The notes beneath the pieces were generated by a model. It did no database searches. It had not been told where the DNA came from and saw only the letters and a list, made by a program, of their open reading frames with translations. Of a DNA stretch of 64,000 nucleotides, positions 15,470 through 51,690 are shown piece after piece. Position 1 is the first letter of the stretch; the number at the start of each line of letters is the position of its first letter. A program made the position numbers and the translations under genes. The DNA is from an archaeon (lineage in GTDB: Archaea > Nanobdellota > Nanobdellia > Pacearchaeales > GW2011-AR1). The DNA lies in NCBI GenBank assembly GCA_043810865.1, contig JBDRNS010000020.1, positions 17,828-81,827 on the forward strand, in the 5' to 3' direction.

Positions 15470-16180
15470 ATGAATTTCATAAAAAAGATTTTCCAGAACA
15501 AAGTTGACGGCAAGGTGCACGCGCAGTTTCAGAAATTCAGCAAGGGCGAGTTCAGGAACAGGGCGATGATAAACGCGAAAGCAACAAAAGACAAATTTAC
15601 GATAAATACGTCAAGCGAATTTGCAGGGGACGTGATAAGGATTGCGGCTGAAAAGTTGGGAAAAAACAAGGCAAAGGTTTCAGGAGCAGTGATATCAACT
15701 TCTGATTTAACAGACAAGATAGATTTCAAAAGCAAAAAGCAGTTTCAGGGCGTGAAGAATTATGCGATTGAAAATGAAATGTCGGGAGACGAGATAATCA
15801 GCTTGCTTGATGAGTTTCCGAAAACATTTTTTGCGTTGAGTTTTGAGGCGCCTGAGATTTCAATTAAGATAAAGCCGAAGGCGCCGATGTCCGGAAAGCC
15901 AAAGCCAGCGAAAGAAGGGGAGAAACAGAAAGTTGATTTTTGCAAGCTTATTACAACAAACAGGGAAATTGCAGACAGTTTTGTTTTTGAAAAGCCAAAT
16001 TGGAAAAATGCAGAGATAAAGCACACTTTTTTGATTGATGAAATTAAAATTCCAAATGAACTGAAAAATGAAAAGGACTTTGCAGTTGTTAGGGAAAAGG
16101 CATTGAGGAAAGGAAAGATAATCCGTGAGGCGATTATTGACGGCGAGAGGATGAAGAGGGAAGTGGGGATGGAGGTTTAG
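15470..16180 (+). CDS. Hypothetical protein (236 aa)
   Basis: Clean ORF, lysine-rich and soluble. No motif is recognised. Confidence 0.5.
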   Translation: MNFIKKIFQNKVDGKVHAQFQKFSKGEFRNRAMINAKATKDKFTINTSSEFAGDVIRIAAEKLGKNKAKVSGAVISTSDLTDKIDFKSKKQFQGVKNYAIENEMSGDEIISLLDEFPKTFFALSFEAPEISIKIKPKAPMSGKPKPAKEGEKQKVDFCKLITTNREIADSFVFEKPNWKNAEIKHTFLIDEIKIPNELKNEKDFAVVREKALRKGKIIREAIIDGERMKREVGMEV

Positions 16181-16317: not shown

Positions 16318-17031
16318 ATGAATATAAAAGAAAATGAAATCAGGGAATTACGCCCACCTTATGCTGGCTCTGGACAGGCCGATGCAGCATTAGAACTATT
16401 CAAAAGACAAGTTCCGAAGAAAATAGACAAAAAATTTGTTATAGCAAATAATCTCGCAACACCCACTAATGCTTTTAGAATAATAGATTTTTATAAATGG
16501 TTAGGTATTACAGATGCGGATGATAATGTTAGAGAAGATGTTGCAAAAAAACTTCGCTTGACTGGTGATGAAAGAGAAAAATACATTAGAGAACTCGTAG
16601 AAGAAGCATATCAAATCTTAATTGAATCTGTTAGTCTTGAGAATGCCAGAAAAGAAGACATAGTAAACGCATTTATCACAAACTATGATTTTACACATAT
16701 ACAAGCAAAATTCGCGGCTGCTCTTTTTATCCATTTATGTCAGAAGTACAGTATTCAAATTTCCGATGAATTGAAAAAAAAGAATTACGTTCCCTCAGAC
16801 AAAGAGAAAAGAAGAAAAATCATCCCACGGAAGAAAATAAAAGATACCTCCTCAAAATTATTTCCTACCCCTCAAGAAAAAATAGATGGAAAAGTTAACC
16901 TTATTATTAGGGGTAATGGGATACATAAGATTTTATCTGCAAATACTCCTGAAGAACTGGATGAAATTTATAAGGGCAAACTGAAAGATGCTGTTGATGC
17001 CGCAAAATTATTATGTTTTGATAAAGATTAA
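16318..17031 (+). CDS. Hypothetical protein (237 aa)
   Basis: Clean ORF flanked by unusually long non-coding spacers (137 and 107 bp). No motif is recognised. Confidence 0.5.
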   Translation: MNIKENEIRELRPPYAGSGQADAALELFKRQVPKKIDKKFVIANNLATPTNAFRIIDFYKWLGITDADDNVREDVAKKLRLTGDEREKYIRELVEEAYQILIESVSLENARKEDIVNAFITNYDFTHIQAKFAAALFIHLCQKYSIQISDELKKKNYVPSDKEKRRKIIPRKKIKDTSSKLFPTPQEKIDGKVNLIIRGNGIHKILSANTPEELDEIYKGKLKDAVDAAKLLCFDKD

Positions 17032-17062
17032 TATTCATATATGAAAGGGAGATGCGCACCAA

Positions 17063-17093
17063 GGGGAACTTGCCTTCCAAGCAAGATTTCCCC
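17063..17093. terminator. GC-rich bulged hairpin in a convergent intergenic spacer
   Basis: GGGGAA-CTTGC-CTTCCAA-GCAAG-(AT)-TTCCCC, flanked by CCAAGG direct repeats. It stands out against AT-rich surroundings and could be a bidirectional terminator or a small RNA. Confidence 0.3.
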
Positions 17094-17138
17094 AAGGACT
17101 TCCTGAAATAAAGTATTTTTATTTCTTAAAACTATCTA

Positions 17139-17537
17139 TTAAGAATAAATTTTCTTTTCAATTTGTTCCTTAATTTTCTCAAATTCAGGTTGTTGTTTCT
17201 TATTAAACATTATTGTATTTTCATCTTGTGTAGCCATTAATATTCCTCTCTTACTTTCTTGCCCACCAATAAAAGAAAATTGAATATATCCATTAGCCAT
17301 CAATCCTGCGGATTTAAATTGAATAGCAGATATATGTTTCAACGCAATTTTTTTATTGCCTTTAAAACCATGTGTAGCAAAGGCCATAAAACCTTTTCTT
17401 ACAATTTCAATAAATCCCTCTCCAAAAATTAATTTACCATTAATTCCTTGCGCTTCCATTAAGAAAACAAAAATATCTTCCACAAAAACCTTTTTAAATT
17501 CACATTTTCTCTCAGTTATATTCCAGGGAAATAACAT
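17139..17537 (-). CDS. Hypothetical protein, possibly a PH-like (bacterial PH/DUF4429-like) fold
   Basis: The pattern G.L.F....IEI.RKG......G...I.L..I.AIQFK.AG...NGYIQF resembles bPH-type domains. The true start is more likely Met27 (17459), because the long form leaves only 25 bp before rpl3. Confidence 0.45.
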   Translation of the reverse strand: MLFPWNITERKCEFKKVFVEDIFVFLMEAQGINGKLIFGEGFIEIVRKGFMAFATHGFKGNKKIALKHISAIQFKSAGLMANGYIQFSFIGGQESKRGILMATQDENTIMFNKKQQPEFEKIKEQIEKKIYS

Positions 17538-17562: not shown

Positions 17563-18498
17563 ATGGGTACGAGAAAATCACCGAGAAAAGGAAGCCTGCA
17601 GTTTTGGCCGAGGAAGAGAGCGAAAAAATTTCTTCCCAGAACTAACTGGAGTGCCATTAATTCTGAATCCAAGAAATTGAAGGGTTTTATCTGCTACAAG
17701 GCAGGCATGAAATCTGCTTATGTTACTGACAATACAGCGAACTCTATGAGCAAGGGAAAAAAGATAATAGTTCCTGTTACAATTCTTGAATGTCCGCCGA
17801 TGAAAATATTCTCTGTAAGATTTTACAAGAATGGAATCGTGCAAAAAGAAATTCTTGCTGATAATCTTGAAAAAGAACTGAAAAGAAAAGTCAAGCTTCC
17901 GAAAACAAAAAGAGAAATGAAAACAGACGGCGATTATGATGACGTTAAAATCATTGCTTATTCCAAAGTTAAGGGGACAGGAATCAAGAAAACGCCTGAT
18001 TTGGCTGAAATTGGCTTGGGAGGAACAAAAGAAGAGAAAATCAATTTTGCAAAAGAAAATCTCGGAAAAGAAATTCATGTTTCTGATGTTTTTGAAAAAG
18101 GACGTCTTGCTGATTTTCGCGGATTGACGAAGGGAAAAGGACTTGTCGGGCCTGTGAAAAGATTTGGCATAAAGCTGAAAAGTCACAAGTCAGAGAAAGG
18201 AAGAAGACGCCCGGGAAGTTTAGGACCGTGGCATCCTGCACGAGTTACTTTCCGCGTTCCAATGGCAGGACAGCTTGGAATGTTCACACGAGTTGTTTAC
18301 AATAACAAGATAATTGACTTGGGAAAGACGGATGAAAAGTTCAAAGGAATAAAAAATTACGGAGATGTAAAAACAGATTATCTCATCGTGCAGGGAAGCG
18401 TGCAGGGAAGTGTGAAAAGACAACTTGTTGCAACCAATCCGTTAAGAGGAACAAAAAAACAATTAAAAAAGAATTACGAACTTTTGGAGTTGAGATAA
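17563..18498 (+). CDS. rpl3: 50S ribosomal protein L3 (uL3)
   Basis: N-terminus SPRKGSLQFWPRKRAKK with FICYKAGM, plus operon position. Confidence 0.95.
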   Translation: MGTRKSPRKGSLQFWPRKRAKKFLPRTNWSAINSESKKLKGFICYKAGMKSAYVTDNTANSMSKGKKIIVPVTILECPPMKIFSVRFYKNGIVQKEILADNLEKELKRKVKLPKTKREMKTDGDYDDVKIIAYSKVKGTGIKKTPDLAEIGLGGTKEEKINFAKENLGKEIHVSDVFEKGRLADFRGLTKGKGLVGPVKRFGIKLKSHKSEKGRRRPGSLGPWHPARVTFRVPMAGQLGMFTRVVYNNKIIDLGKTDEKFKGIKNYGDVKTDYLIVQGSVQGSVKRQLVATNPLRGTKKQLKKNYELLELR

Positions 18499-18549: not shown

Positions 18550-19344
18550 ATGAAAGCAGAAATTTTAGACATCAACGGAAAGAAAACAAAAGAAATAGAA
18601 CTGCCTGAATTTTTTTCGGAGAAAATCAGAGAAGATATTGTTGCAAGAGTTCTTGAAGCGAAAAAGAAAAAGCAACCCTATTCTCCGAGTTTGGTTGCGG
18701 GAAAGCAATATTCTGCTAGCGGAAAAATAAAACACCACAGGCATGTTTGGAAAACGCATTACGGAAAAGGAATTGCAAGAATTCCAAGGAAGATAATGTC
18801 GCGAAGAGGTTCTCAGTTCAACTGGATTGGCGCGACTGTTCCAAGCACTGTCGGAGGAAGAAGAGCGCATCCGCCAAAAGTTGTTGCAATGATAAACAGC
18901 AAAAAAATAAACAAGAAAGAAATAAGCATTGCACTAAAATCCGCGATAAGCGCGACGGCAAATGAAAAGGAAGTTTCTGGAAAATATGAAAAATTAAGAA
19001 ATGAAAAATTGAAACTTCCGATTGTTGTTGAATCAAAAATAACTTCACTGAAAGCAAAAGAACTTATGAACAGTATGAAAAAAATTCTTGGAGGAAAACT
19101 TTTTGATGTTGCAATAAAAAAGAAAACAATAAGAGCAGGGAAAGGAAAAATGAGGGGGAGAAAATACAAAAGCAACGCAGGACTTTTGATTGTCACGGGA
19201 AATGACGAGAAAATGAAAACAGGATTTTTTGATGTTGTGAATGCAAAGAACGTAAGCATTACTGATTTAGCCAAAGGAGGACTTGGACGACTGACTGTTT
19301 ACACTGAAAACTCAATTAAAAATTTGAAGGAGAAAATAAAATGA
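18550..19344 (+). CDS. rpl4: 50S ribosomal protein L4 (uL4)
   Basis: GKGIARIPR and VGGRRAHPPK motifs, plus operon position. Confidence 0.95.
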   Translation: MKAEILDINGKKTKEIELPEFFSEKIREDIVARVLEAKKKKQPYSPSLVAGKQYSASGKIKHHRHVWKTHYGKGIARIPRKIMSRRGSQFNWIGATVPSTVGGRRAHPPKVVAMINSKKINKKEISIALKSAISATANEKEVSGKYEKLRNEKLKLPIVVESKITSLKAKELMNSMKKILGGKLFDVAIKKKTIRAGKGKMRGRKYKSNAGLLIVTGNDEKMKTGFFDVVNAKNVSITDLAKGGLGRLTVYTENSIKNLKEKIK

Positions 19345-19604
19345 AAAGAAATTATGGTGGAAACGGAAATGGAATTGTAAGAACAGAAGACGGAGAATAT
19401 ACACCATTAAAAATAAAAACAGTTGCAGGCAAATGCGAATTTTATGGTTCGGGAAACTGTCGCGATGAAAGAAGATGTGATGCTGCAGGACATATGCTCG
19501 GACCTGAGGGAGATAATGGAAAAAGAAAAATTATAGGAGTTTGTGAAGGTTACATTCCTACCCTTAAAGAAATTTTAGTGCCGGAGATGAGGAGAGTAAG
19601 ATGA
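19341..19604 (+). CDS. Hypothetical 87-aa Gly- and Cys-containing protein inserted in the ribosomal operon
   Basis: Its ATG overlaps the rpl4 stop (ATGA at 19341-19344). It has four Cys (GKCEF, GNCRD, RRCDA, GVCEG). It resembles no ribosomal protein I know. Confidence 0.6.
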   Translation: MKRNYGGNGNGIVRTEDGEYTPLKIKTVAGKCEFYGSGNCRDERRCDAAGHMLGPEGDNGKRKIIGVCEGYIPTLKEILVPEMRRVR

Positions 19605-20248
19605 ACCTTAAACCAGTTGCACTTGATTTGGAAATGTCGGGATTAGACATGGAAAAATGCGGAGTGTGGCAGATAGGCGCTGTTGATTTGGATACGGGAG
19701 AAGAATTTTTAGAGGAATCAAGAATTGACGACGAGGATGAAGTTAATGAAGAATCAATGAGGGTTTCAATGAAAACAGAAGAAGAGCTGAGGGATCCAAG
19801 TAAACAGTCACAGGAAGAAATGATTAGAAAATTTTTCGCGTGGATGGAAAAAAGGAGAGCGAGAAATTTTTTGGCGCAAAATCCTGCGTTTGACATGGGC
19901 TTTCTTTACATAAAGGCAAGCAAATACAATCTGAGAAAGCCGTTCCATTTCAGAAGCTTTGACTTGCATACAATTGCACAGGTAATTTTTTACAAACTCA
20001 ACAATAAATTTTTCACAAGGGAAAACGACAGCGACATGAGTTTGACTAATATCTTGGAGTTTTGCGGAATCCCCGACGGGAGAGTGCAACTTGTAAGGGG
20101 AAAGGTTGCAAAAGAAGGAAAGCCGCACAATGCGCTGGAAGACGCAAAACTTGCCGCAGAATGTTTTTGCCGACTTATGAAAGGAGAAAATCTTTTTCCA
20201 GAATATTCACAGTATGCAATTCCGGAGGTTTTGAAAAATGCATCTTAA
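19601..20248 (+). CDS. DEDDh-type 3'-5' exonuclease (DnaQ / RNase T / oligoribonuclease superfamily)
   Basis: ExoI is ALDLEMSG, ExoII is QNPAFDMGFL and ExoIII is HNALEDAKLAAE. An acidic insert lies between ExoI and ExoII. The start overlaps the upstream stop (ATGA) and the 3' end overlaps the rpl23 start by 11 nt. Confidence 0.8.
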   Translation: MNLKPVALDLEMSGLDMEKCGVWQIGAVDLDTGEEFLEESRIDDEDEVNEESMRVSMKTEEELRDPSKQSQEEMIRKFFAWMEKRRARNFLAQNPAFDMGFLYIKASKYNLRKPFHFRSFDLHTIAQVIFYKLNNKFFTRENDSDMSLTNILEFCGIPDGRVQLVRGKVAKEGKPHNALEDAKLAAECFCRLMKGENLFPEYSQYAIPEVLKNAS

Positions 20249-20480
20249 GCCAGTAACAACTGAAAAGGCAGTTATGATGATTGAAAAAGAAAACGCGCTT
20301 TTGTTTGAAACAGAAATGAAAATGACAAAAGAGGAAATAAAAAAAGAAATTGGAGAAATCTTTGACGTGAAAATTGAAAAAGTCAGGACGCTGATTAAGA
20401 AAAACAAGAAATATGCTTACGTAAAATTAAACAAAAAGTTTCCTGCCATCGACGTGGCGACGAAACTTGGAGTGATATAA
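20238..20480 (+). CDS. rpl23: 50S ribosomal protein L23 (uL23)
   Basis: KPVTTEKAV...ALLFETEMKMTKEEIKKEIGEIFDVKIEKVRT is the typical L23 pattern. Confidence 0.9.
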   Translation: MHLKPVTTEKAVMMIEKENALLFETEMKMTKEEIKKEIGEIFDVKIEKVRTLIKKNKKYAYVKLNKKFPAIDVATKLGVI

Positions 20481-20788
20481 TGGAAGAAAAAAGTTACCAA
20501 GGACAATTGAATGAACTTAATATTTTAACAGGAGAATTATTAGCAAGAGACGCAAAAGATGACGAAGCGGGAATAGCTCCGGCTGCTGCTCTTAAACTTA
20601 GGGTATATGGTTTTAGACAGCCGGTAGACAAGGGCCCATTGAAATATTCTAAAGGAGGGATTGAAGTGACTTATGATACATTCAGACAAGAACCTTTTAA
20701 GATTACAATTGAAGAAGACAGGTGGTTTGCAGTTCCAAGAGTACGAAGAATTTTATCTGATTTATTAAAAGAATTTAAAGAAATTTAA
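20480..20788 (+). CDS. Hypothetical 102-aa protein inserted between rpl23 and rpl2
   Basis: The start shares one nucleotide with the rpl23 stop (TAATG). The gene ends 1 nt before rpl2. No motif is recognised. Confidence 0.6.
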   Translation: MEEKSYQGQLNELNILTGELLARDAKDDEAGIAPAAALKLRVYGFRQPVDKGPLKYSKGGIEVTYDTFRQEPFKITIEEDRWFAVPRVRRILSDLLKEFKEI

Positions 20789-20789
20789 A

Positions 20790-21488
20790 ATGGGAAAGAG
20801 AATAATTTCGCAGGCAAGAGGGCACGGAAGCTCAACTTACAGAGTAAGAAGAAAAGCATTCAGATACAAGCTGAAATATCCCCCTAAACTTGCGGGAGAA
20901 GGAATGGTTTTGAAACTTTTGAATTCTCCGGGACACAGTGCGCCGCTCGCGAAAATAAAATACAACAAAGGAATATTTTTTATTCCTGCATTCAGGGGAA
21001 TGTATGAGGGGCAAAAGATAGGTTTTGGAAAAGAAGCTAAAGAAGGAAACATCATGAGATTGGAAAATATTCCTGTAAAAACAAACATTTACAACATTGA
21101 ATCGCGCCCGGGCGACGGAGGAGTTTTCATAAAAACATCCGGAAATTCCGCGTTCATCAGCAGAATAACAGACAAAGGCATTTTTGTCACACTTCCGTCG
21201 AAAAAAGAAAGATTATTCAACAAAGAATGCAGAGCAATAGTCGGGACAATTGCAGGAGAAGGGCGGCTAAGCAAGCCGATTGTCAAGGCAGGAAAAAGTT
21301 TTCATATCAACAAATCAAAAGCAAGAATCTGGCCGAGGACATCTGCAGTTAAGATGAATGCGATAGACCATCCGTTCGGTTCAGGAAGAGGGAAAAATCC
21401 AAAAAGAAAAATAGCAAAAAGAAATGCTCCTCCTGGAAGAAGAGTAGGTCTGCTAAGGCCGAGAAGAACAGGAAGGAAGAAAAGATAA
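20790..21488 (+). CDS. rpl2: 50S ribosomal protein L2 (uL2)
   Basis: MGKRIISQARGHGS at the N-terminus, with the C-terminal sequence MNAIDHPFGSGRG. Confidence 0.95.
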   Translation: MGKRIISQARGHGSSTYRVRRKAFRYKLKYPPKLAGEGMVLKLLNSPGHSAPLAKIKYNKGIFFIPAFRGMYEGQKIGFGKEAKEGNIMRLENIPVKTNIYNIESRPGDGGVFIKTSGNSAFISRITDKGIFVTLPSKKERLFNKECRAIVGTIAGEGRLSKPIVKAGKSFHINKSKARIWPRTSAVKMNAIDHPFGSGRGKNPKRKIAKRNAPPGRRVGLLRPRRTGRKKR

Positions 21489-23252: not shown

Positions 23253-23435
23253 ATGGCAACTTTAAAAATGAAAGATTTGAAATCAATGGGCAAGGAAGAA
23301 AGAGAAAAGAAAATGAAAGAACTTAAATTTGAACTTATAAAATCAAATGCAAATGCGTCAAAGACAGGTTCAAAAACCAAAGAAATCAGAAAAATAATCG
23401 CACGCATTAAAACGTTCGATAAAACAAACAAATAA
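23253..23435 (+). CDS. rpl29: 50S ribosomal protein L29 (uL29)
   Basis: The 60-aa sequence LKSMGKEEREKKMKELKFELIK...IRKIIARIKT fits L29. Confidence 0.9.
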   Translation: MATLKMKDLKSMGKEEREKKMKELKFELIKSNANASKTGSKTKEIRKIIARIKTFDKTNK

Positions 23436-23436
23436 C

Positions 23437-23733
23437 ATGGAGATATGCCCAAAATGCGGCCTGCCAAAACAGGCATGTGTATGTGAACAGATTGTAAAAA
23501 GTTCACAGAAGATAAAGGTATCTACAGACAAGAAGAAATACGGGAAGCTGGTAACAGTGATTACCGGTTTTGAAAGCGGGATTGACATGAAAAAAATTGT
23601 GAAGTCGCTGAAAAACGAACTCGCCTGCGGGGGAACAAACAAAGGCAACACAATTGAACTTCAGGGAGATCACACGAAGAAAGTAAAACAAGTCCTTATA
23701 AAACTGGGATTTGAAGAAGAGTTGATAGATTAA
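23437..23733 (+). CDS. sui1: Translation initiation factor SUI1 / aIF1
   Basis: N-terminal CPKCG..C.C zinc knuckle, then KYGKLVTVITG and LACGGT...IELQGDH. Confidence 0.9.
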   Translation: MEICPKCGLPKQACVCEQIVKSSQKIKVSTDKKKYGKLVTVITGFESGIDMKKIVKSLKNELACGGTNKGNTIELQGDHTKKVKQVLIKLGFEEELID

Positions 23734-23748
23734 ACATACACATAGAAA

Positions 23749-24126
23749 ATGAAAAAAACAGAAAGCAAAAAAGAAAGAAGAGAAAGCAAACTACAAGACG
23801 GAAGTATCGCAGAAACAGAAAAGTGCAATGATATTAAATGCAACATTCACGGGAAACTAAAAACAAGAGGAAGAGTTTTCGAGGGAACTGTCATTAAGAA
23901 ATTTCCGAAGAGAGTTGCAGTTGAATTTGAGAGAATGATTTACATAAGAAAATATGAAAGATATGCAAAGAAAAAAACAAAAATTCACGCGCGGCTTCCC
24001 GAATGCACTGAAAAAAACGTGAATGTCGGCGATTTGATAAAAGTTCAGGAATGCCGTCCCTTAAGCAAAATTGTTCACTTCATTGTCTTAAGCAAAATAA
24101 AAGACAAAGAGGAAAATTTCAAATGA
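23749..24126 (+). CDS. rps17: 30S ribosomal protein S17 (uS17)
   Basis: RGRVFEGTVIKKFPKRVAVEFERMIYIRKYERY and VGDLIKVQECRPLSK match S17. Confidence 0.93.
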   Translation: MKKTESKKERRESKLQDGSIAETEKCNDIKCNIHGKLKTRGRVFEGTVIKKFPKRVAVEFERMIYIRKYERYAKKKTKIHARLPECTEKNVNVGDLIKVQECRPLSKIVHFIVLSKIKDKEENFK

Positions 24127-43069: not shown

Positions 43070-44168
43070 ATTTATTTCCAATTAATGAAATATAAAGTTC
43101 TTTATATTTTCCAGCAACAACTGGCCAGTTATTTTCCCTTAAGTATCTTTCACATTCTCTCACCATTTTTTTATAATTATCTTTTTTCATAGACTCTTTT
43201 ATAACACGCGGAAAATCATCTTTATTTTCTGCAATCCTCAAAGACCCATATTTTCTTGCCATTTCCTTAAAGAAAGGAATGTTGCTGGCAACAACAGGTG
43301 TTTTTGAAGACATGGCATCTGAAAAAACCCCGCTCCTTACCCCTCCCCTATATGCCTGTATAATCAAATCTGCGGCTGAAAAATACTTCCACCATAATAC
43401 ATCAGGAATTTCCTTCAAATCAAATCTCACAAATTTTTCAAATCCTTTTTCTTTCACAATTTCCTTGTTAAGACTAATATAATTTCTTGTTTTTTCCTTG
43501 TTTCTTACATTAACCCCTTTGGGGTTGGTTGCAAAAACAATTGTCTTTCCTATCTTATCCGCCTGACTGATTATTATATCCGCCCCAACATCTTCTGTAA
43601 GGTTTCCCATCATAAGATAAACATTACCTGTAAATTTCAGCTCTTTTTTTGCCCTTGACTTCGGCAAGAGATTAACATCATAAATAAGTCCTTGGGGGAC
43701 TACTTTTATTCTTGAATCATTAAAATTATATTCTTCTATCAAAATATTCTTATAAAACTCTTCATTTACTAAAACCATATCAGAAACCCAATTTATCATC
43801 CTATTTTGAAAAAAGTACAACATTTTTCTAAAGATACTTTTTATGGCTTTTTTGTCTACCCTTTTTTTGTTTGAAAGAACAGTATGCATATGAAGCACTA
43901 TTTTTTTATTTAACATAAAAAAACGCGACAAAACTAAAAAGAAAGGCAACCCGTAAAGCCCAAGAAGGTTATATTCATGCTGTAAGTGAATTATATCATA
44001 TTCTTTTAATTTAGGGATTATTTTAAAAAAGGATTTTAATGAGCCTGCAGTGTAAGTTATCAAGTTTATATCAACCCCTTTCTTCCTGGTTTCATTTACA
44101 ATGTATTGTGAAATTTTTGACAGTGCCTTTTCCGACTCCGAATCGGGAGAAATTAATGCCACTTTCAT
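43056..44168 (-). CDS. Glycosyltransferase, GT-B fold (GT4-like)
   Basis: N-terminus MKVALISP, with a C-terminal nucleotide-sugar-binding-like region (SGVFSDAMSSKTPVVASNIPFFKE). Confidence 0.65.
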   Translation of the reverse strand: MKVALISPDSESEKALSKISQYIVNETRKKGVDINLITYTAGSLKSFFKIIPKLKEYDIIHLQHEYNLLGLYGLPFFLVLSRFFMLNKKIVLHMHTVLSNKKRVDKKAIKSIFRKMLYFFQNRMINWVSDMVLVNEEFYKNILIEEYNFNDSRIKVVPQGLIYDVNLLPKSRAKKELKFTGNVYLMMGNLTEDVGADIIISQADKIGKTIVFATNPKGVNVRNKEKTRNYISLNKEIVKEKGFEKFVRFDLKEIPDVLWWKYFSAADLIIQAYRGGVRSGVFSDAMSSKTPVVASNIPFFKEMARKYGSLRIAENKDDFPRVIKESMKKDNYKKMVRECERYLRENNWPVVAGKYKELYISLIGNKSNNQ

Positions 44169-44285
44169 AAAAATTTTGGAGAAGTATTGTTTATAAAATT
44201 TATCGATGTCAGGGACATATTCAAGAAATAAAATTGTATTTCACAATGCATATAAACTTTTAAATGAGGATTTTTCTGTTCTAAA

Positions 44286-45392
44286 ATGAATGAAATAAAC
44301 TTTTCAACAAGTGTAAAAGAGATTAAAGAAAGGGTTTTGCAAATTTTTGATAATTTTGACAAAGAAGTTAAAAAAGGAGAGAGAAAAAAAGCATTTATTA
44401 CGGGAATTACTGGGCAAGATGGCTCATATTTAGCTGAATTTTTGTTAAAAAAAGGATACGAAGTTCATGGATTGGTAAGAAGGGTAGCTTTGGAGGACCC
44501 ACATCACAGACTTAAAAGAATTTACCATATAAAGAACAAATTAATTTTACATCCAGGAAATATAGAAAGCTATTCCCGTTTAATAGATTTATTTGATAAA
44601 ATTCAACCAGATGAATGTTATCATCTAGCAGCACAAAGCTTTGTACACGAATCTTTTGAAGATTCTTTCTCTACCTTCATTACAAATATTCAGGGGACAC
44701 TTAATATACTAACTGCTCTCAAAAATAGATCTCCAAAATGTAGATTTTATTTTGCGGCATCATCAGAAATGTTTGGAAAAGTTGAAGAAATACCTCAAAC
44801 AGAAAAAACTCCTTTTCATGCACGTTCCCCATATGGGATTACAAAAGTTACTGGCTTTGATCTAACAAGAAATTTCAGGGAGTCTTACAATATTTTTGCG
44901 TGCAGTGGAATACTATTCAATCACGAATCTCCAAGGAGAGGTCATGAATTTGTTACCAGAAAAATAACCTCTTCAATATCAAAAATAAAAGAAAATCAGG
45001 ATTTTTGTTTAGGACTTGGAAATTTAAATGCAAAAAGAGACTGGGGTTTTGCAGAAGATTATGTTGAGGCAATGTGGCTAATGCTACAGCAAGAAAAACC
45101 AGAAGACTACGTGATATCTACAGGAGAGACCCATACAGTAAGAGAGTTTGTTGAAGAAGCATTCAAGGTCGCAGGCTTGCTCCCAATAACATGGCATGGT
45201 GAAGGCATCAATGAAATTGGAAAACATAATGGGAAAATAGTTATAAAGATTGATGAAAACTTTTCTAGGCCTGCAGAAGTTGACCTTCTTGTTGGAGATT
45301 TTTCAAAAGCAAAAACAAATCTTAATTGGAAACCAAGAACAAAATTTGAAGATCTTGTTAGAATAATGATTAAAGAAGATTTAAAAAAATAA
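44286..45392 (+). CDS. gmd: GDP-mannose 4,6-dehydratase (paralog 1)
   Basis: AFITGITGQDGSYLAEFLLKKGYEVHGLVRR, SSEMFG, SPYGITK (YxxxK) and ILFNHESPRRG. It carries a roughly 35-aa N-terminal extension. Confidence 0.9.
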   Translation: MNEINFSTSVKEIKERVLQIFDNFDKEVKKGERKKAFITGITGQDGSYLAEFLLKKGYEVHGLVRRVALEDPHHRLKRIYHIKNKLILHPGNIESYSRLIDLFDKIQPDECYHLAAQSFVHESFEDSFSTFITNIQGTLNILTALKNRSPKCRFYFAASSEMFGKVEEIPQTEKTPFHARSPYGITKVTGFDLTRNFRESYNIFACSGILFNHESPRRGHEFVTRKITSSISKIKENQDFCLGLGNLNAKRDWGFAEDYVEAMWLMLQQEKPEDYVISTGETHTVREFVEEAFKVAGLLPITWHGEGINEIGKHNGKIVIKIDENFSRPAEVDLLVGDFSKAKTNLNWKPRTKFEDLVRIMIKEDLKK

Positions 45393-45420
45393 AAAATTAT
45401 TGTATCTAAAATAATAACAA

Positions 45421-46320
45421 CTATCCAAAAACTAAAAGTCCCTCTGTTGAGTTCCTCACAATTACATAATTAATCAACTCTTCTCTTATTTTTATTTTTT
45501 TATTTTTTAAGTGATAGAATAATACCCTTTCTAAAAGACACATATGTTCTGTCTTAAATTTCTTATAAAACATTTTTGGGAATAAAAGAAATACTCCAAA
45601 AAAAGATCTTGGTAATTTTTTTTGTTTTTTGTTTAATTTCTTATTGATAAAAAGAAAAAAATTAACATAGTTCTTTTCAAAGAAAAAAAAGATTTTTTGA
45701 AAGAAAGTTGGTTTAATTGAAGCATTCTTTTGTACTATTTTTCTAAAATTATCATATAAGGAGCAATATGATTTAAAATTCTCAAATTCTTTTGTTATAC
45801 AAAACATATCATTTATTTTATTCTTATAAGAATCATTTATTTTAGGTACAATAATTTCATTTTCCTTTAATTTGAAATTTTCTAGTTTAATAGTGTCAAA
45901 TGGAAGAAAATCAAATCTCAATCTAATAAAATAATTATATGAAACTCTTTCTTTTTTCATATATTCTTCAAGGAGATCAAAAGATTTCCTTATTTTATAT
46001 AATTGTTGGTAGATGTTCCTAAAATTAAATCTAAAAGATTCCAAGAAGAGAATTGTTTTATAATTTTGTTTATTTAAAAGCCTAATTTCAGGTTGGATTA
46101 TCTCATCAACATCTGAGAATTTAACTTTCTCTAATCTTTTATAATTTAGCAATTTTACTTTTTTAAAATCCCCGTCATCTTCTGAAAAACAAAAGATATC
46201 ATGAGATCCTATTTGGTCCAATAAATTTTTCTTGATGTAAGGGTAACATAATTCCAATGTTCTGGCTTGCCCAGAAAAACACAAGGCAACATTTTTTACA
46301 GAAGGTTTTTTATTTTTCAT
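45421..46320 (-). CDS. Hypothetical protein, very AT-rich, possibly glycan-related
   Basis: Clean 299-aa ORF inside the glycan island. The protein is extremely K/N/F/I-rich and I can assign no motif confidently. Confidence 0.45.
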   Translation of the reverse strand: MKNKKPSVKNVALCFSGQARTLELCYPYIKKNLLDQIGSHDIFCFSEDDGDFKKVKLLNYKRLEKVKFSDVDEIIQPEIRLLNKQNYKTILFLESFRFNFRNIYQQLYKIRKSFDLLEEYMKKERVSYNYFIRLRFDFLPFDTIKLENFKLKENEIIVPKINDSYKNKINDMFCITKEFENFKSYCSLYDNFRKIVQKNASIKPTFFQKIFFFFEKNYVNFFLFINKKLNKKQKKLPRSFFGVFLLFPKMFYKKFKTEHMCLLERVLFYHLKNKKIKIREELINYVIVRNSTEGLLVFG

Positions 46321-46657
46321 TTTAAATTCTATACTTCCTTTTCAAACTTAACAAGCAATATCTATTTAAATTTTGTACAATACTTTAATCTAATCATTTT
46401 TATATAGTTTTCTTGTAATAAAAACCATCTATTAATGTATCAAAAAAGTCACCAAAAAGTAGTAGTAATTAGATAAGTATCATTATACCTTTGGGAGTAT
46501 TGGGAACTAGATTTGAAGAGAATAGGTTTGATTAATTTAAAAGATTTAAAAAATAAAGGAACAGTCCATAATAGGGTTCTGTAAGATCTTCGGTTGGTGA
46601 AATGGGGGTGATTCTTAAATCCACAAGAAATAAATAGCTTAATTTATAATTTTTATT

Positions 46658-47065
46658 ATGATTATGGAAACACTTGAGAAAGATGGAAAAAGATTTGCAT
46701 TTGTTATAAGAAAAGACTCAAACATCCAAGGTAAAGAATTTCTAAGCAAAGATGAAGATTTAATTCAAGTTGGTTTTATGAATCTCAAAAAGGGAGATTC
46801 AATTGACCCCCATTTTCATAAATTTTATGAAAGAAAAATTGAGAGAACGTCTGAAGTAATATATATTTTAGAGGGAAAGGTCAAGGTTAATATATATGAA
46901 AATAAAAAGAAAGTGATAGATACAATAATTGAAAAAGGGGATTTGATTGTTCTTTTATCCGGGGGGCATGGATTCGAGATTTTAGAAGACACTAAATTCT
47001 TTGAAGTCAAACAAGGGCCTTTTATTGGAGCTGAAAATGATAAAGAAAAATTTGAGGAAAAATGA
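46658..47065 (+). CDS. Cupin-fold protein (WxcM/WbuC-like, possible sugar ketoisomerase)
   Basis: Small beta-barrel pattern with HFH...E (DPHFHKFYERKIERTSEVIYILEG). It is coupled (ATGA overlap) to the downstream sugar aminotransferase. Confidence 0.5.
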   Translation: MIMETLEKDGKRFAFVIRKDSNIQGKEFLSKDEDLIQVGFMNLKKGDSIDPHFHKFYERKIERTSEVIYILEGKVKVNIYENKKKVIDTIIEKGDLIVLLSGGHGFEILEDTKFFEVKQGPFIGAENDKEKFEEK

Positions 47066-48186
47066 TTCCAGTATGTAAACCTTGGTTGCCGGGTAAAGAA
47101 AAAGAATATCTTAATGATGCCATAAATACTAATTGGATAAGTAGTAATGGAAAATATATCACTAAATTTGAGGAAGAATTCTCTAAATTTTGTGGGACCA
47201 AATATGGAATTAGTTGTTCTAGTGGATTTGGAGCATTGCATTTGGCTTGTGCAGCACTAGGTTTAAAAAAAGGTGATGAAGTCATAGTTCCTAACTTTAC
47301 AATGATTGCACCCATCAATGCCATAATATTAACAGGAGCAAAACCTGTTCTAGTTGATGCAGACCCTAAAACATTTTGTATTGATGTTAATCTAATAGAG
47401 AAAAAAATTACTAAGAAAACTAAAGCAATTATTCCTGTACACATTTATGGACACCCTTGTGACATGGACCCTATTCTAGAGTTAGCTAAAAAATATAATC
47501 TTTTCGTTATTGAAGATTCTGCAGAAGCACATGGTGCAGAATATAAAAATAAGAAATGTGGAAGCATGTCTGATATTAGCTGTTTTAGTTTTTATGCTAA
47601 TAAAATATTGACAACGGGGGAAGGAGGAATGTGTGTCACAAATAACCCAGAACTAGCAGAAAAAATTAGAAAATTAAGAAATCATGCTTTTGAAGTGCCA
47701 CGTTTTACACATAATGAAATTGGTTTTAATTATAGATTAACAAATCTTCAGGCAGCAATAGGATTTGCCCAAGCAGAAAATGCTGACATGTTAGTGGAAT
47801 CGAGAAGAAATATTGGAATTCAATATAATCAGTTCCTTAAAGAGGTAGGGGGATTAATTCTTCCTGTAGAAGAACCTTATGCTAAAAATGTTTATTGGAT
47901 GTATGGGGTTGTTTTGACGGACGAAATTAAGACAAGTAGGGAAGAAATTGTTAATAAATTAAGAGAAAAGGGGGTTGATACTAGAAATTTTTTTATTCCC
48001 GTGCATAAACAACCTGTTTTTATTAAGGGAGAAATAGAAAATGCTCCAGATTGCTCTGGAAACTTTGAAATATCTGATAAAATAAGCGAAAGGGGTTTTT
48101 ATCTTCCTAGTTCTAGTGATCTAAAAAAGGAGGAAATTCAATCTATTTGTGAGATATTAAAAGAAATTTTATCAAAAAATCAATAA
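47062..48186 (+). CDS. DegT/DnrJ/EryC1/StrS-family PLP-dependent sugar aminotransferase
   Basis: Family pattern: DAINTNWISSNGKY, VIEDSAEAHGAEY, SFYANKILTTGEGGM (catalytic Lys) and NYRLTNLQAAIG. Confidence 0.85.
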   Translation: MIPVCKPWLPGKEKEYLNDAINTNWISSNGKYITKFEEEFSKFCGTKYGISCSSGFGALHLACAALGLKKGDEVIVPNFTMIAPINAIILTGAKPVLVDADPKTFCIDVNLIEKKITKKTKAIIPVHIYGHPCDMDPILELAKKYNLFVIEDSAEAHGAEYKNKKCGSMSDISCFSFYANKILTTGEGGMCVTNNPELAEKIRKLRNHAFEVPRFTHNEIGFNYRLTNLQAAIGFAQAENADMLVESRRNIGIQYNQFLKEVGGLILPVEEPYAKNVYWMYGVVLTDEIKTSREEIVNKLREKGVDTRNFFIPVHKQPVFIKGEIENAPDCSGNFEISDKISERGFYLPSSSDLKKEEIQSICEILKEILSKNQ

Positions 48187-48307
48187 CGTTGTGTCTGTGC
48201 AATAAAGTGTGATTATATAGACATATGTTTATATATGCATAAAAAAACATTATAAATTAGATGAAAAATATTAACTTAAATAAAAAAATAATTGTGTAGT
48301 TTTAAAA

Positions 48308-49120
48308 ATGAATAATCTTGGCCTTTTAGATGCAATAACAGAAAGAATTGAAAGTTTTTTCGTTCTTATGAAAGAGGGTTATAAATTCAAAGATAAACTT
48401 ATAATTTTAAGATTTCATCTTAAGACACCTTTACACTTATTAAACTATCTTTTGGGAATAAAAAATTCACGAAGATTATATGGAAATGTTTTTATCAAAA
48501 ATCGTTATGGTTTATTCTTCTGCGGAAATAATTTTTCAAGTGTCTTTGGTGTGGGTTCTATGTCTGAACCTATTGTAAGAAAAGAACTTATTATAAAAAA
48601 AGGTGTTATGATGGATATTGGGGCTAATTGTGGTATGTTCACAATTCCCACAGCAAAAATGTTAGGGAAAAATGGAAGAGTCATATCCATTGAGCCAGAT
48701 AAAAAAAATATAAAACTCCTTAAAAAAAATGTGGGCTTAAATAATCTAAAAAATGTAGATGTAATTGAAAAAGGAGTTTTTTCTAAAAAAGGAAAAATGA
48801 CCTTTTATCTTGATGACATTGGAACTGGAGGCCATTCTTTATTAAAAAGTGAGGTAAAGAAAAAAGAGATTATTTCTGTAGATACTATTGATAATACACT
48901 AAGTAAACTTAAGATAAATCATGTAGATCTTATAAAAATTGATGTTGAGGGTGTTGAAATTGAGGCTTTCAAAGGGGCAAAAAAAATTCTGAAAAAATCC
49001 CACCCTAAAATAATTTTTGAGGCATTAAGTGAACACAAAAGAGAAGAAATATACAAATTTTTAAATCAATATGGTTATAAGATAAAAAAAATAACTGACT
49101 GCAATTATGTTGCTGTCTAA
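48308..49120 (+). CDS. FkbM-family SAM-dependent methyltransferase
   Basis: DIGANCGMFTI and KIDVEGVEIEAFKGA motifs. Confidence 0.7.
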   Translation: MNNLGLLDAITERIESFFVLMKEGYKFKDKLIILRFHLKTPLHLLNYLLGIKNSRRLYGNVFIKNRYGLFFCGNNFSSVFGVGSMSEPIVRKELIIKKGVMMDIGANCGMFTIPTAKMLGKNGRVISIEPDKKNIKLLKKNVGLNNLKNVDVIEKGVFSKKGKMTFYLDDIGTGGHSLLKSEVKKKEIISVDTIDNTLSKLKINHVDLIKIDVEGVEIEAFKGAKKILKKSHPKIIFEALSEHKREEIYKFLNQYGYKIKKITDCNYVAV

Positions 49121-49177
49121 AATTTTCTGAATAATCACATATTCTTACCAACTTTACCCATAATCATTATTTTTTAA

Positions 49178-49729
49178 TCAATATAAAGATTCATATAATT
49201 CCCAATGTTCTTTTGCAACCTTTTTCCATGAGCGTTCTTTTAAAAGTTTTTGTGCTCCTTTTTTTAGTTTATCCCTTAATTTTTTAGATCTGCTTACTTG
49301 AATTATTTTAGCTTCAAATTCTTTTATTGAGTCTGCCGTTAAACATGCACCATATTTTTTTTCTATTTCTTTAAAGAAAGGATTGTTCCAAGCAATTATT
49401 GGCTTTAAGTACATCACTACTCTTGAAAATACCCCGCTTAAAGCGACAACACTCCAGTAGGGAAGTAAAATTATGTCTGCATTTTTGGCATATTTTTCGA
49501 ATTCATTTTCTTCCAATCTTCTTGCTTCTATTTTAAGATTTTTCAAAACTTTTTCTTTTTTTCTTAGACCATATAATGTTTGTTTATCTTCAAGAGACCA
49601 CACAGGTCCCACAATAAGAAGATGTATATTTGGATTTTTTTCTATAACTTTTATAGCCCGGTCATAACCTTTTATTTTCCCTATTGATCCAAAAATCACG
49701 CATTTAATTAATTCCATGGCCAATTTCAA
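49178..49729 (-). CDS. Glycosyltransferase C-terminal (nucleotide-sugar-binding) half
   Basis: LLIVGP...ADIILLPYW is typical of the C-terminal Rossmann domain of a GT-B enzyme. The track start is TTG 49729 and an internal ATG lies at 49717. It overlaps the upstream half-gene. Confidence 0.55.
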   Translation of the reverse strand: MKLAMELIKCVIFGSIGKIKGYDRAIKVIEKNPNIHLLIVGPVWSLEDKQTLYGLRKKEKVLKNLKIEARRLEENEFEKYAKNADIILLPYWSVVALSGVFSRVVMYLKPIIAWNNPFFKEIEKKYGACLTADSIKEFEAKIIQVSRSKKLRDKLKKGAQKLLKERSWKKVAKEHWELYESLY

Positions 49730-50195
49730 TTATTTTTATTTTTTTCTTGTCTATTTTATAATCTACAACTAAAGTTTTTTTCATTCCATAGATTAGGGCA
49801 ACAATTTTGTCAGAAAAAAACACTACCAGTTTTGTAGAGATTGGAAGGATAATTTTCTTTATAAGTGTAAAAAATTTATTTCTTGTATATATCTCTTTTT
49901 TGTTAGGAATAGTTCCAAATGTTAGAACAATTTTCTTTTTATTAAGTTTTAATCTTATTAATTTTGGAATAATGCCCAGTCCAAATGGGTGAAAAAGAGA
50001 ATGATCAAATATTACGTGGAAGACATCAAAATCATTGTAATTTGTCTTATTTGAAAGCGTTGCATCAAAACCTTGTTTTTTCATTGCTTTTACAAGAAAT
50101 TCCGCATATGATTTTAATCCGCCTTCATCTGTTACATACATGAGAACTTTCATTTTAACAAAAATAGAGTCATTATTTAAAAATTTATGGGGCAT
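49704..50195 (-). CDS. Glycosyltransferase N-terminal half
   Basis: MKVLMYVTDEGGLKSYAEFLVKAMKKQG resembles a GT4 N-terminal domain. The ORF ends at IEIGHGIN*, where a full-length GT would continue into the C-terminal domain. Confidence 0.55.
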   Translation of the reverse strand: MPHKFLNNDSIFVKMKVLMYVTDEGGLKSYAEFLVKAMKKQGFDATLSNKTNYNDFDVFHVIFDHSLFHPFGLGIIPKLIRLKLNKKKIVLTFGTIPNKKEIYTRNKFFTLIKKIILPISTKLVVFFSDKIVALIYGMKKTLVVDYKIDKKKIKIIEIGHGIN

Positions 50196-51564
50196 TTTTC
50201 ATTAATTGTTTCTCTTTCTTCTTACTCAAAATCAAGCCAAACATATAGGACCAACTACCAATTATTGTCGCTCCTGTTACACCGTAAACCACAAATGAAT
50301 TCCCATATTCATTTAGAAATAAAATTGCTAAAACATTTAGAGTTATATTCATAAACAAAGAAATAATTAGGAGTTTTGTGACAATCATGGGCTTTCCTTT
50401 TGCAGCAAAATAACTAATATAAATACCATTTAAGGGAATACTTATTAATAATAAAGAAAGAAATCTTAGAAGATTTATGGAAAATATGTATTCTCCCCCA
50501 TAAATAAGATTAATTATAAAAGATGATGATAATAAAACAAATAAAAATAATGCGAATGAAATCCATAATATTATCAAAAGGGATTTTTTGAATCCTCTTT
50601 CTAATTGTTGATTTTTTAACTTACTAAAAATTGGAAGTAAAACTGTTGAAAAACTAATTAAAGAAGTCATAGCAGCTATAAGAGTGAATGCGGCCCTATA
50701 GTACCCTATGTATTCTGAAACAACAAATCTTCCAAGCATTACCATGTCAACATATCCAAAAAAAGCCGTTGTTATTGTTAGTGCAGAAACAGGAAGAATA
50801 AACTTATTTACTTTTTTCTTTTCTAAAAAAGAAATTTTTTTCTCTTTTTTAGATAAATACTCTAATTTATTTTTAGATAAAAAAATGAGAAAAATTAAAG
50901 AAATCAAATAAGAAAAACCTAATCCAAGTATTATAAGAAATAAAAGAGATTCACTTGAAAAAAGTTGTTTTAAAGAAAGCAAAACCACTAAAGGAATTAT
51001 AATTAATCTCATTGCCTGGAAAATTATCTCTTTGTAAAAAATTCCTTTAAAATAATTTAATGCTTGTAAAATTGATTGCATAAATGCCACAATCCCTGCA
51101 AATAAAATATACAGAGATCCTGCTATTAATGCTAAAAAGATAGGCTTCTGATAATAAGCATTTGAGATAAATTTTGCAGAAATTATTAAAATTAACATTG
51201 AAATAAAAATTAGAAATAACTTTAACTTTCCTAAATAAATAGTATAAGATTTCGCTTTATTCTTTTTTTTGTTTTTTCCAAATTCTTTTGAAACAAATCT
51301 GGTTAAGGTTACTCCAACACCCAATTCAGAAAATGTGGAAAGGATTAAAATTGTCGATAAAGCTAAACTATACAACCCGAATAATTCTGGCATCAGTATT
51401 CTTGCTAAAATTATTGTAAATAATAATGAACCTGCTTTTGCGGTAATATTTGTTAGAAATTGAAAAATACTGTTTTTAACAACAATACCTGTATTTCCGG
51501 AAAAATCTCTTTTTTTTATTCTCCTAAAGATATCTCTAATATGAATCAGAATATCTTGTTTCAT
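50185..51564 (-). CDS. wzx: Wzx-type oligosaccharide flippase (MOP/polysaccharide biosynthesis protein family)
   Basis: 459 aa with about 12-14 TM segments. The N-terminal pattern is KNSIFQFLTNITAKAGSLLFTIILARILMPELFGLYSLA. Confidence 0.8.
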   Translation of the reverse strand: MKQDILIHIRDIFRRIKKRDFSGNTGIVVKNSIFQFLTNITAKAGSLLFTIILARILMPELFGLYSLALSTILILSTFSELGVGVTLTRFVSKEFGKNKKKNKAKSYTIYLGKLKLFLIFISMLILIISAKFISNAYYQKPIFLALIAGSLYILFAGIVAFMQSILQALNYFKGIFYKEIIFQAMRLIIIPLVVLLSLKQLFSSESLLFLIILGLGFSYLISLIFLIFLSKNKLEYLSKKEKKISFLEKKKVNKFILPVSALTITTAFFGYVDMVMLGRFVVSEYIGYYRAAFTLIAAMTSLISFSTVLLPIFSKLKNQQLERGFKKSLLIILWISFALFLFVLLSSSFIINLIYGGEYIFSINLLRFLSLLLISIPLNGIYISYFAAKGKPMIVTKLLIISLFMNITLNVLAILFLNEYGNSFVVYGVTGATIIGSWSYMFGLILSKKKEKQLMKNAP

Positions 51565-51690
51565 TTTTGAAACAACAATTTTTCATTTTTATTCTTTATG
51601 GAACTATAACTTTTAAGAATTATGCGCAAAAAAAGCATAATCTAAATGGTTAGGAAAACCCAAATAAGACGCCTTATTTTATTTTAAGAT

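Follow-up and report, generated by a model that had tools for sequence, protein, structure and literature searches.

The window analysed here is a 64,000-nucleotide (nt) stretch of the genome of a Pacearchaeales archaeon (GTDB lineage Archaea; Nanobdellota; Nanobdellia; Pacearchaeales; GW2011-AR1), corresponding to positions 17,828 to 81,827 of the forward strand of contig JBDRNS010000020.1 (GenBank assembly GCA_043810865.1). We focus on a gene for a predicted DEDDh-type 3'-5' exonuclease that stands inside the ribosomal-protein operon of this window, between the genes for uL4 and uL23 (ribosomal proteins are called L4, L23 and so on below). Few gene orders of prokaryotes are as conserved as L3-L4-L23-L2, and the exonuclease gene is a fixed gene of the operon in most of the species studied, the present one included.

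Exactly as the initial annotation of this DNA had stated, two extra open reading frames (ORFs) separate L4 from L23: ORF87, which encodes a protein of 87 amino acids (aa), and the exonuclease gene (Table 1). The L4 stop codon (TGA) and the ORF87 start share an ATGA at positions 19341-19344, the ORF87 stop and the exonuclease start share another at 19601-19604, and the L23 start lies inside the 3' end of the exonuclease gene, with an overlap of 11 nt. GGAG-type motifs are found 6-10 nt 5' of the starts of ORF87, the exonuclease gene, L23 and ORF102, a third extra ORF, located between L23 and L2, that was missing from the initial annotation. On the 3' side of L2, the genes for S19, L22, S3, L29, SUI1, S17, L14, L24, S4e, L5, S8 and onward follow in the canonical order (L29, L14, L24, S4e, L5 and S8 were identified by Pfam matches in the window; S19, L22, S3, SUI1 and S17 were named from the window ORFs and from the genes called at equivalent positions of related loci). 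An Rfam scan of the window returned two tRNAs only; in the operon it detected no RNA element, whether a leader or another. Likewise, a listing of the T-runs of the operon revealed no clear internal terminator pattern.

Table 1. Features of the ribosomal-protein operon around the exonuclease gene (positions in the window)
Feature	Position	Strand	Basis
uL3 gene	17563-18498	+	ORF list of the window
uL4 gene, 264 aa	18550-19344	+	Pfam Ribosomal_L4 1.8e-19; NCBIfam rpl4p_arch 1.8e-57
ORF87, 87 aa, four Cys, L4-exonuclease slot	19341-19604	+	coding score in frame
DEDDh (DnaQ/RNase T-like) 3'-5' exonuclease gene (predicted), 215 aa	19601-20248	+	Pfam RNase_T, Rv2179c-like; synteny
Exo I motif D9-L-E11 (DLEMSG)	19625-19633	+	D9, E11 invariant in 82/82 orthologs
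Exo II catalytic Asp D98 (NPAFDMGFL)	19892-19894	+	invariant in 82/82 orthologs
Exo III motif H176-x4-D181 (HNALEDA)	20126-20143	+	H176, D181 invariant in 82/82 orthologs
uL23 gene, 80 aa	20238-20480	+	NCBIfam uL23_arch 7.5e-22; GGAGG before start
ORF102, 102 aa, L23-L2 slot	20480-20788	+	coding score in frame
uL2 gene	20790-21488	+	Pfam Ribosomal_L2_C 7.6e-35
SUI1 gene	23437-23733	+	window ORF; PF01253 SUI1 on the same-position gene of related loci

Family, active site and predicted structure of the exonuclease

Judged by its sequence, the 215-aa ORF is a DEDDh 3'-5' exonuclease with an intact active site and a predicted activity. It matches the Pfam families RNase_T (PF00929; 2.4e-12, 48.2 bits for a cut-off of 24) and Rv2179c-like (PF16473; 7.9e-12, 45.7 bits for a cut-off of 27, over residues 6-189). 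The three DEDDh motifs pointed out in the initial annotation are all present, and the five catalytic residues (D9, E11, D98, H176 and D181) were found to be invariant in an alignment of 27 homologs, then in 82/82 orthologs. Residues W23, Q24, G26, W81, D121, H123, L184 and E187 are invariant in these 82 orthologs as well.

A model of the exonuclease built by AlphaFold2 on the homolog alignment has a predicted local distance difference test (pLDDT) score of 95.8. When this model was compared to the PDB with Foldseek, RNase T came first, over the full length (E 8.8e-8, template-modelling (TM) score 0.61-0.65, identity 17-18%), followed by a DnaQ domain, the PolC exonuclease, Cap18, Cas2-DEDDh, ERI1/3'hExo, CRN-4 and ExoI; a comparison with viral structures returned only generic phage DnaQ-like matches (TM score up to 0.75). 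The acidic stretch at residues ~39-64, which had been taken for an insert, is not one: in alignments it corresponds to the strand-helix segment that canonically follows Exo I in DnaQ-type domains, and it is conserved family-wide. The variable extra of this protein is a beta-hairpin before Exo III (residues ~158-172), which is deleted in some orthologs.

The top matches of a sequence-profile search of the PDB were to DnaQ and PolC exonuclease domains (8h18, DnaQ, 1.6e-9; 2p1j, 2.1e-9), and the PADLOC model of CRISPR-associated DEDDh proteins scored 57.8 bits. The more specific models all stayed far under their cut-offs, be it the NCBIfam RNase T equivalog TIGR01298 (23.1 vs 246.2 bits), the epsilon/PolC models TIGR00573, TIGR01406 and TIGR01405 (30.9 vs 71.5, 25 vs 222.7 and 30.2 vs 1043 bits, respectively) or the oligoribonuclease model PRK05359 (18.4 vs 106 bits, E 1.1e-3). 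The exonuclease is a new subfamily of the well-known DEDDh superfamily.

Conservation and gene contexts of the exonuclease

With a threshold of E<=0.001, at least 372 homologs of the exonuclease were found. Among the best 120 listed, identity to it is 51-69% (self match aside) and the source names are Pacearchaeota, Nanoarchaeota or unclassified archaeon; most homologs carry the same precomputed Pfam match (Rv2179c-like, PF16473). Such source names, and the archaeal models matched by L4 and L23, assign the organism to the Pacearchaeota/Woesearchaeota-labelled DPANN archaea. When one genome was scanned for each GTDB species, 167 species were found to have a relative, and the best 80 loci were analysed. 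The exonucleases make up a single ortholog family across Pacearchaeota/Woesearchaeota-labelled DPANN archaea. The gene lies between L4 and L23 in 50/80 of these species-representative loci, as it does in further metagenome contigs, and the L3-L4-exonuclease-L23-L2 order was observed for all three homologs inspected on long contigs. The L4-exonuclease-L23 arrangement is kept even in lineages that share no more than 53-58% identity with the window in L3 and L4.

The junctions on the two sides of the exonuclease gene are strikingly regular: an overlap of exactly 4 nt was found in 41/50 loci for L4-exonuclease and in 40/50 for exonuclease-L23, gaps of at least 100 nt being present in 7 and 1 loci, respectively. 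The same counts are 16/48 (exact 4-nt overlap) and 18 (gap of at least 100 nt) for the L3-L4 junction, 0/49 and 22 for L23-L2, and 1/47 and 10 for L2-S19. Outside the operon, 6/30 same-strand gene pairs of the window overlap, 3/30 by 4 nt. The exonuclease gene is therefore the most tightly chained gene in the L3-S19 part of the operon. This bears out the view, put forward in the initial annotation, that it is no loose insertion, L4-exonuclease-L23 being present in 50/80 species with 4-nt overlaps on each side in ~80% of the loci.

The base composition of the gene was also considered. The exonuclease gene has a guanine-plus-cytosine (GC) content of 0.40, and a GC content at third codon positions (GC3) of 0.403, the GC3 of the ribosomal genes being 0.31-0.39 and the window mean 0.304. 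Of the two signs of foreignness contemplated at the outset, namely absence from close relatives and deviant GC usage, neither applies to the exonuclease gene, which is conserved and resembles ribosomal genes; ORF87, for its part, is absent nearly everywhere and has a low GC3, as detailed below. Similarly, the suggestion of a domesticated selfish insertion receives no support in the case of the exonuclease, for which neither close viral relatives nor flanking repeats were found.

In the remaining 30/80 species, the exonuclease gene is found outside L4-L23. It is followed immediately by GINS51 in 16/30 of them, often with an overlap, the upstream gene usually being apgM (phosphoglycerate mutase), as in locus L047 (2680-5178), where apgM, the exonuclease gene and GINS51 succeed one another and the last two overlap by 4 nt. 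In 3/30, it stands in the series S15, RecJ/GAN-type DHH protein, exonuclease, aIF2alpha, aEF1beta, an example of which, with a HIT gene at its end, is provided by a complete Pacearchaeota genome, CP061211 (L043:1932-6533). In a further 4/30, a class-V aminotransferase gene occurs within a few genes 3' of the exonuclease gene, with a cytidylyltransferase-like gene before it in three; the neighbours are others again in 7/30. A neighbour-joining tree of 82 exonucleases is star-like and poorly resolved, with operon and non-operon contexts interleaved, and no residue of the 82-ortholog alignment separates the operon copies from the non-operon ones. Note that the alternative contexts with GINS51 or aIF2alpha are still information-processing neighbourhoods, with replisome genes among them; clusters of GINS15, PCNA and PriS with S27E, L44E, aIF2alpha and Nop10 have been described in archaea (Berthon et al. 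2008, PMC2643942).

ORF87, ORF102 and the other ORFs at operon junctions

ORF87 has a coding score of +0.415 bits/codon in its own frame and negative scores in the other five, and in this it resembles the flanking ribosomal genes; the exonuclease gene, too, scores as coding only in the frame given. ORF87 spans the L4-exonuclease gap exactly, with both ATGA overlaps kept. The GC3 of ORF87 (0.205) and that of ORF102 (0.204) rank near the 5th percentile among the 57 genes of the window that were scored, which fits a younger or less expression-adapted gene. The four Cys of the ORF87 product (C32, C40, C46 and C68) are spaced C-x7-C-x5-C-x21-C, unlike those of a CxxC zinc ribbon; putative metal binding is plausible. 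In agreement with the initial annotation, this four-Cys protein belongs to no recognisable family: it has no match in Pfam, NCBIfam (E<=0.1), PHROGs or PADLOC and none among PDB sequences (E<=1), and a word-indexed search of 5.8 billion proteins together with a full phmmer search of 1.84 billion representatives returned the protein itself only. A single-sequence AlphaFold2 model reached a pLDDT of 53, too low for a fold search.

The proposal that the 87-aa protein is a partner of the exonuclease has to be abandoned. Indeed, ORF87 is absent from almost all loci, including those of the closest exonuclease relatives (L086-L088; 69%, 64% and 62% identity), in which L4 overlaps the exonuclease gene directly. 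Only one homolog of it is supported, an ORF of 62 aa that occupies the L4-exonuclease slot in L006, the locus that branches as sister to the window in the tree of exonucleases: identity is 28% and all four Cys are aligned, in what is a weak match (BLASTP E=0.001 for a single comparison). L049 and L001 have four-Cys ORFs of 52-58 aa in the L4-exonuclease slot, which resemble ORF87 at the level of the motif only. A scan of metagenomes with a pattern derived from the ORF87/L006 alignment gave a single match, in L094 (2737-3456), where AAGFILGPEGDNEIAQKIGAV is shared with residues 46-70 of ORF87; it was rejected as due to chance because this 25-residue stretch falls within a high-GC bacterial protein. 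ORF87 is a real, fast-evolving, lineage-specific gene, and its absence next to the closest relatives of the exonuclease shows that it is no conserved or obligate partner of that enzyme.

ORF102 has a coding score of +0.388 bits/codon, positive in its own frame only. tblastn revealed homologs with 29-30% identity at the L23-L2 junction of L012 (3972-4277) and L016 (4886-5191), which cluster with it; the database search returned ORF102 only, and no match was obtained in Pfam or NCBIfam (E<=0.1), in PHROGs or among PDB sequences (E<=1). At these Pfam, NCBIfam and PDB thresholds, the possibility left open in the initial annotation that the 87-aa ORF is a known ribosomal protein did not materialize, nor does it for ORF102.

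Both ORFs illustrate a widespread feature of these operons, namely the presence of variable orphan ORFs at the junctions between genes. At least one L3-S19 junction is widened by at least 100 nt in 35/50 operon loci, at the L3-L4, L4-exonuclease, L23-L2 or L2-S19 slot, and nearly every widened junction is occupied from end to end by a + strand ORF of 45-173 aa. We gathered 56 junction ORFs from the 50 loci and three metagenome contigs, and added the 52-aa ORF of L001 for clustering. They are mostly singletons, with nine small clusters; one family occupies two slots of L014, L3-L4 and L23-L2 (2130-2375 and 4072-4308). Further examples of junction ORFs are found at L008:2909-3163, L040:4633-4908 and L044:5966-6475. 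A Pfam scan of the 56 junction ORFs recognized NUDIX in 2 and no family for the rest. A NUDIX hydrolase gene (Pfam 6e-17) lies between L4 and the exonuclease gene at L042:507-842 and L068:3621-4007; NudF adjoins PCNA/TFS in other archaea (Berthon et al., PMC2643942).

The 5' edge of the operon is variable too. The region 16318-17537 of the window holds a 237-aa ORF on the + strand and, on the minus strand, a DUF4429 gene (17139-17537, GC3 0.195), and both of these extra genes lie between L3 and a gene for a conserved hypothetical protein of 236 aa (15470-16180) that is found 5' of L3 in relatives; the equivalent place of L004 is taken by a Fic-domain gene and a 47-aa ORF. Further downstream, the S3 ORF as listed has a TTG start at 22520 and overlaps L22 by 50 nt, the likelier start being the ATG at 22571, which comes after a GGAG. 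In many archaea, Rpp29 (RNase P component 1) and SUI1/aIF1 sit between L29 and S17. In the L29-S17 interval of the window (23253-24126), SUI1 is the only gene, no ORF for Rpp29 being apparent in that interval. Finally, a stretch at 44000-53000 has a low GC content (0.25-0.31, with a gene GC3 of ~0.19-0.21, vs 0.33-0.41 elsewhere) and may correspond to an island or to a set of genes that evolves differently.

Possible roles of the exonuclease and comparison with known systems

The explanation that we favour, and to which we give as a whole a probability of about 0.42, is that the exonuclease is a fixed, translationally coupled product of the ribosomal-protein operon that trims RNA 3' ends, and that ORF87 is a lineage-specific gene that does not act as its partner. 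The exonuclease gene would be co-transcribed with the operon, and termination-reinitiation coupling would make L23 synthesis pass through translation of the exonuclease, which would imply a ribosomal-protein-like expression of the enzyme. The enzyme would trim stable RNA (rRNA or tRNA) at the 3' end while ribosomes or tRNAs are produced or turned over, and ORF87 would have landed in the L4-exonuclease junction with the coupling signals preserved. We propose the trimming of rRNA or tRNA tentatively and by analogy with RNase T, the best structural match, and with the eukaryotic Rex/ERI1 enzymes. Translation genes are present in the S15-RecJ/GAN-exonuclease-aIF2alpha-aEF1beta context as well. A more ambitious version of this explanation, which we consider doubtful, is that the L3-L4-L23-L2 block has been remodelled in Pacearchaeota-type DPANN archaea: the exonuclease, synthesized in concert with ribosomal proteins, would have been permanently acquired as a lineage-specific trimming factor involved in ribosome biogenesis or bound to the ribosome, and the junctions would be landing sites for fast-evolving, coupled orphan small proteins like ORF87 and ORF102, some of them maybe ribosome-associated.

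Several observations weigh against an RNA-trimming role. The ortholog is coupled to a replisome gene, GINS51, in 16 species and to metabolic genes in others, and no residue signature sets the operon copies apart; therefore, operon membership in such compact genomes is weak evidence of function. Co-transcription and translational coupling themselves are features that we infer from sequence. The strongest profile labels are of the DNA type (phrog_192, 'DNA polymerase exonuclease subunit', 91 bits; DnaQ and PolC in the PDB), and profile, fold and residue evidence alike fits RNA or DNA as the substrate. Finally, the premise of the initial annotation that this lineage has a reduced RNA-processing machinery is weak: Cluster-2 DPANN archaea are reported to keep the exosome subunits Rrp4/41/42 and to be without Csl4 only (PMC7414124), and there is therefore no obvious missing activity to fill. 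What stands of the dedicated ribosome- or rRNA-associated exonuclease first proposed is the coupled operon member; its dedication becomes one option only, the contexts being GINS51 or RecJ/GAN-aIF2alpha in 19 species.

It is also conceivable, albeit rather unlikely, that the exonuclease acts on DNA, as a stand-alone DnaQ-like enzyme for replication or repair (trans proofreading, 3'-flap or primer-end trimming), in which case its place among ribosomal genes would be one more example of the known mixing of replication and translation genes in archaea. Such clusters are documented (Berthon et al. 2008, PMC2643942), many of the 16 species with the GINS51 context show an overlap between the exonuclease stop and the GINS51 start, and in 3 species the gene directly upstream is that of RecJ/GAN (DHH, DHH-CID, DHHA1). 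The top sequence profiles (DnaQ, PolC exonuclease, the Cas2-DEDDh prespacer trimmer and, at 91 bits, phrog_192) point in the same direction, as do the phage DnaQ-like proteins that are the best viral fold matches. However, the majority context (50/80) is purely ribosomal, 'DnaQ' and 'epsilon' are generic labels that profiles give to any DEDDh domain, and the curated DnaQ/PolC models of NCBIfam all score far under their cut-offs. Moreover, proofreading exonucleases are already part of the archaeal polymerases PolB and PolD. Pacearchaeota own a PolII-like B7 PolB (PMC7544198); to judge from its family, this polymerase presumably has an intact exonuclease domain.

Unlikelier still, in our opinion, is a general housekeeping nuclease, devoted to oligonucleotide (nanoRNA) decay or to nucleotide salvage in a host-dependent organism, and riding in whatever constitutive operon; the L4-L23 position would persist by inertia, loss of the overlapped gene disrupting L23 expression. 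The heterogeneity of the contexts (ribosomal, apgM-GINS51, transketolase/2-hydroxyacid dehydrogenase, cytidylyltransferase-aminotransferase) and their interleaving in the exonuclease tree are in keeping with this idea. So are the frequency of overlaps in the genome (the 6/30 same-strand pairs mentioned above), the tolerance of the operon for dozens of unrelated hitchhiking ORFs, and an Exo I motif, DLEMSGL, that is like the one of oligoribonuclease, with which there is a weak match (PRK05359, 1.1e-3). By contrast, inertia accounts poorly for exonuclease junctions that overlap more tightly and consistently than those between true ribosomal genes, and for an exonuclease-L23 junction that is almost never invaded by inserts (1/50). 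Conservation across the order and the invariance of W23, Q24, W81, D121, H123 and E187 suggest, furthermore, a specific substrate or partner.

The last alternative, that both ORFs form a recent selfish or mobile cassette or that ORF87 is spurious, is hardly credible: the GC3 of ~0.205 of ORF87 and ORF102, the lack of ORF87 in nearly all relatives and of homologs of it in databases, and the presence of one small-ORF family in two slots of L014, which hints at movement, are all that recommends it, whereas the exonuclease is conserved across the order with a native composition, has only 5 relatives (25% identity) in viral contigs and is not mobile, a search for repeats around the inserts gave low-complexity chance matches only and no terminal or flanking repeats, and ORF87 has an in-frame coding signal, a Shine-Dalgarno motif, an exact junction fill with ATGA overlaps and a four-Cys homolog in L006.

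A non-ribosomal enzyme fixed in L3-L4-L23-L2 across an entire order is an unusual break in gene order. We came across no account of an exonuclease in the L4-L23 slot or of the junction-ORF pattern in the searchable literature; what is new here is the order-wide fixation at the L4-L23 junction together with the junction-ORF pattern that surrounds it. The set of RNases that finishes archaeal rRNA ends is still incomplete (PMC11602121), and the exonuclease, which is small and easy to express, offers a concrete candidate for the trimming of 3' ends in DPANN archaea. Were it to act on DNA instead, it would be a new stand-alone exonuclease in the archaeal replisome neighbourhood. The orphan ORFs, on their side, suggest that in streamlined genomes the highest-expressed operon can serve new small genes as a nursery or landing pad, an idea that, if true, has implications for gene birth and for what DPANN ribosomes are made of.

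The systems to which the exonuclease can be compared fall on both the DNA and the RNA side. Two of its neighbours in other species, GINS51 and aIF2-alpha, are members of the replication-translation clusters of archaea (PMC2643942); that paper mentions no exonuclease of this family, the word 'exonuclease' having 0 occurrences in it. The DnaQ-like domains (Pol III epsilon, PolC, Cas2-DEDDh, phrog_192) provide the best sequence-profile matches, and GINS51 or RecJ/GAN adjoins the exonuclease gene in 19 species; the exonuclease differs from them in that it stands alone, with no polymerase or Cas2 fusion, in a context that is ribosomal in the majority of cases. With respect to the Rv2179c-like exoribonucleases (PF16473; Mycobacterium RNase AS), the exonuclease exceeds the gathering score over the whole domain, but PF00929 scores it equally well and none of the PDB sequence matches at E<=0.01 was an Rv2179c chain.

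RNase T, the nearest solved structure (PDB 2f96, 3nh1 and others), shares the DEDDh fold and the catalytic pentad with the exonuclease. Its role, the trimming of 23S rRNA, 5S rRNA and tRNA at the 3' end, is of the type that we propose for the exonuclease. Unlike the exonuclease, RNase T is bacterial and not encoded inside an S10-type operon, identity between the two is 17-18%, and the TIGR01298 score is far under the cut-off. As regards gene order, finally, the exonuclease gene is not at the same place as Rpp29 and SUI1/aIF1 in the S10/spc operon: it occupies another slot (L4/L23), encodes a protein of another family and is confined to one DPANN order, whereas these two are pan-archaeal. They nevertheless offer a precedent for an RNA-processing subunit as a fixed passenger of this operon.

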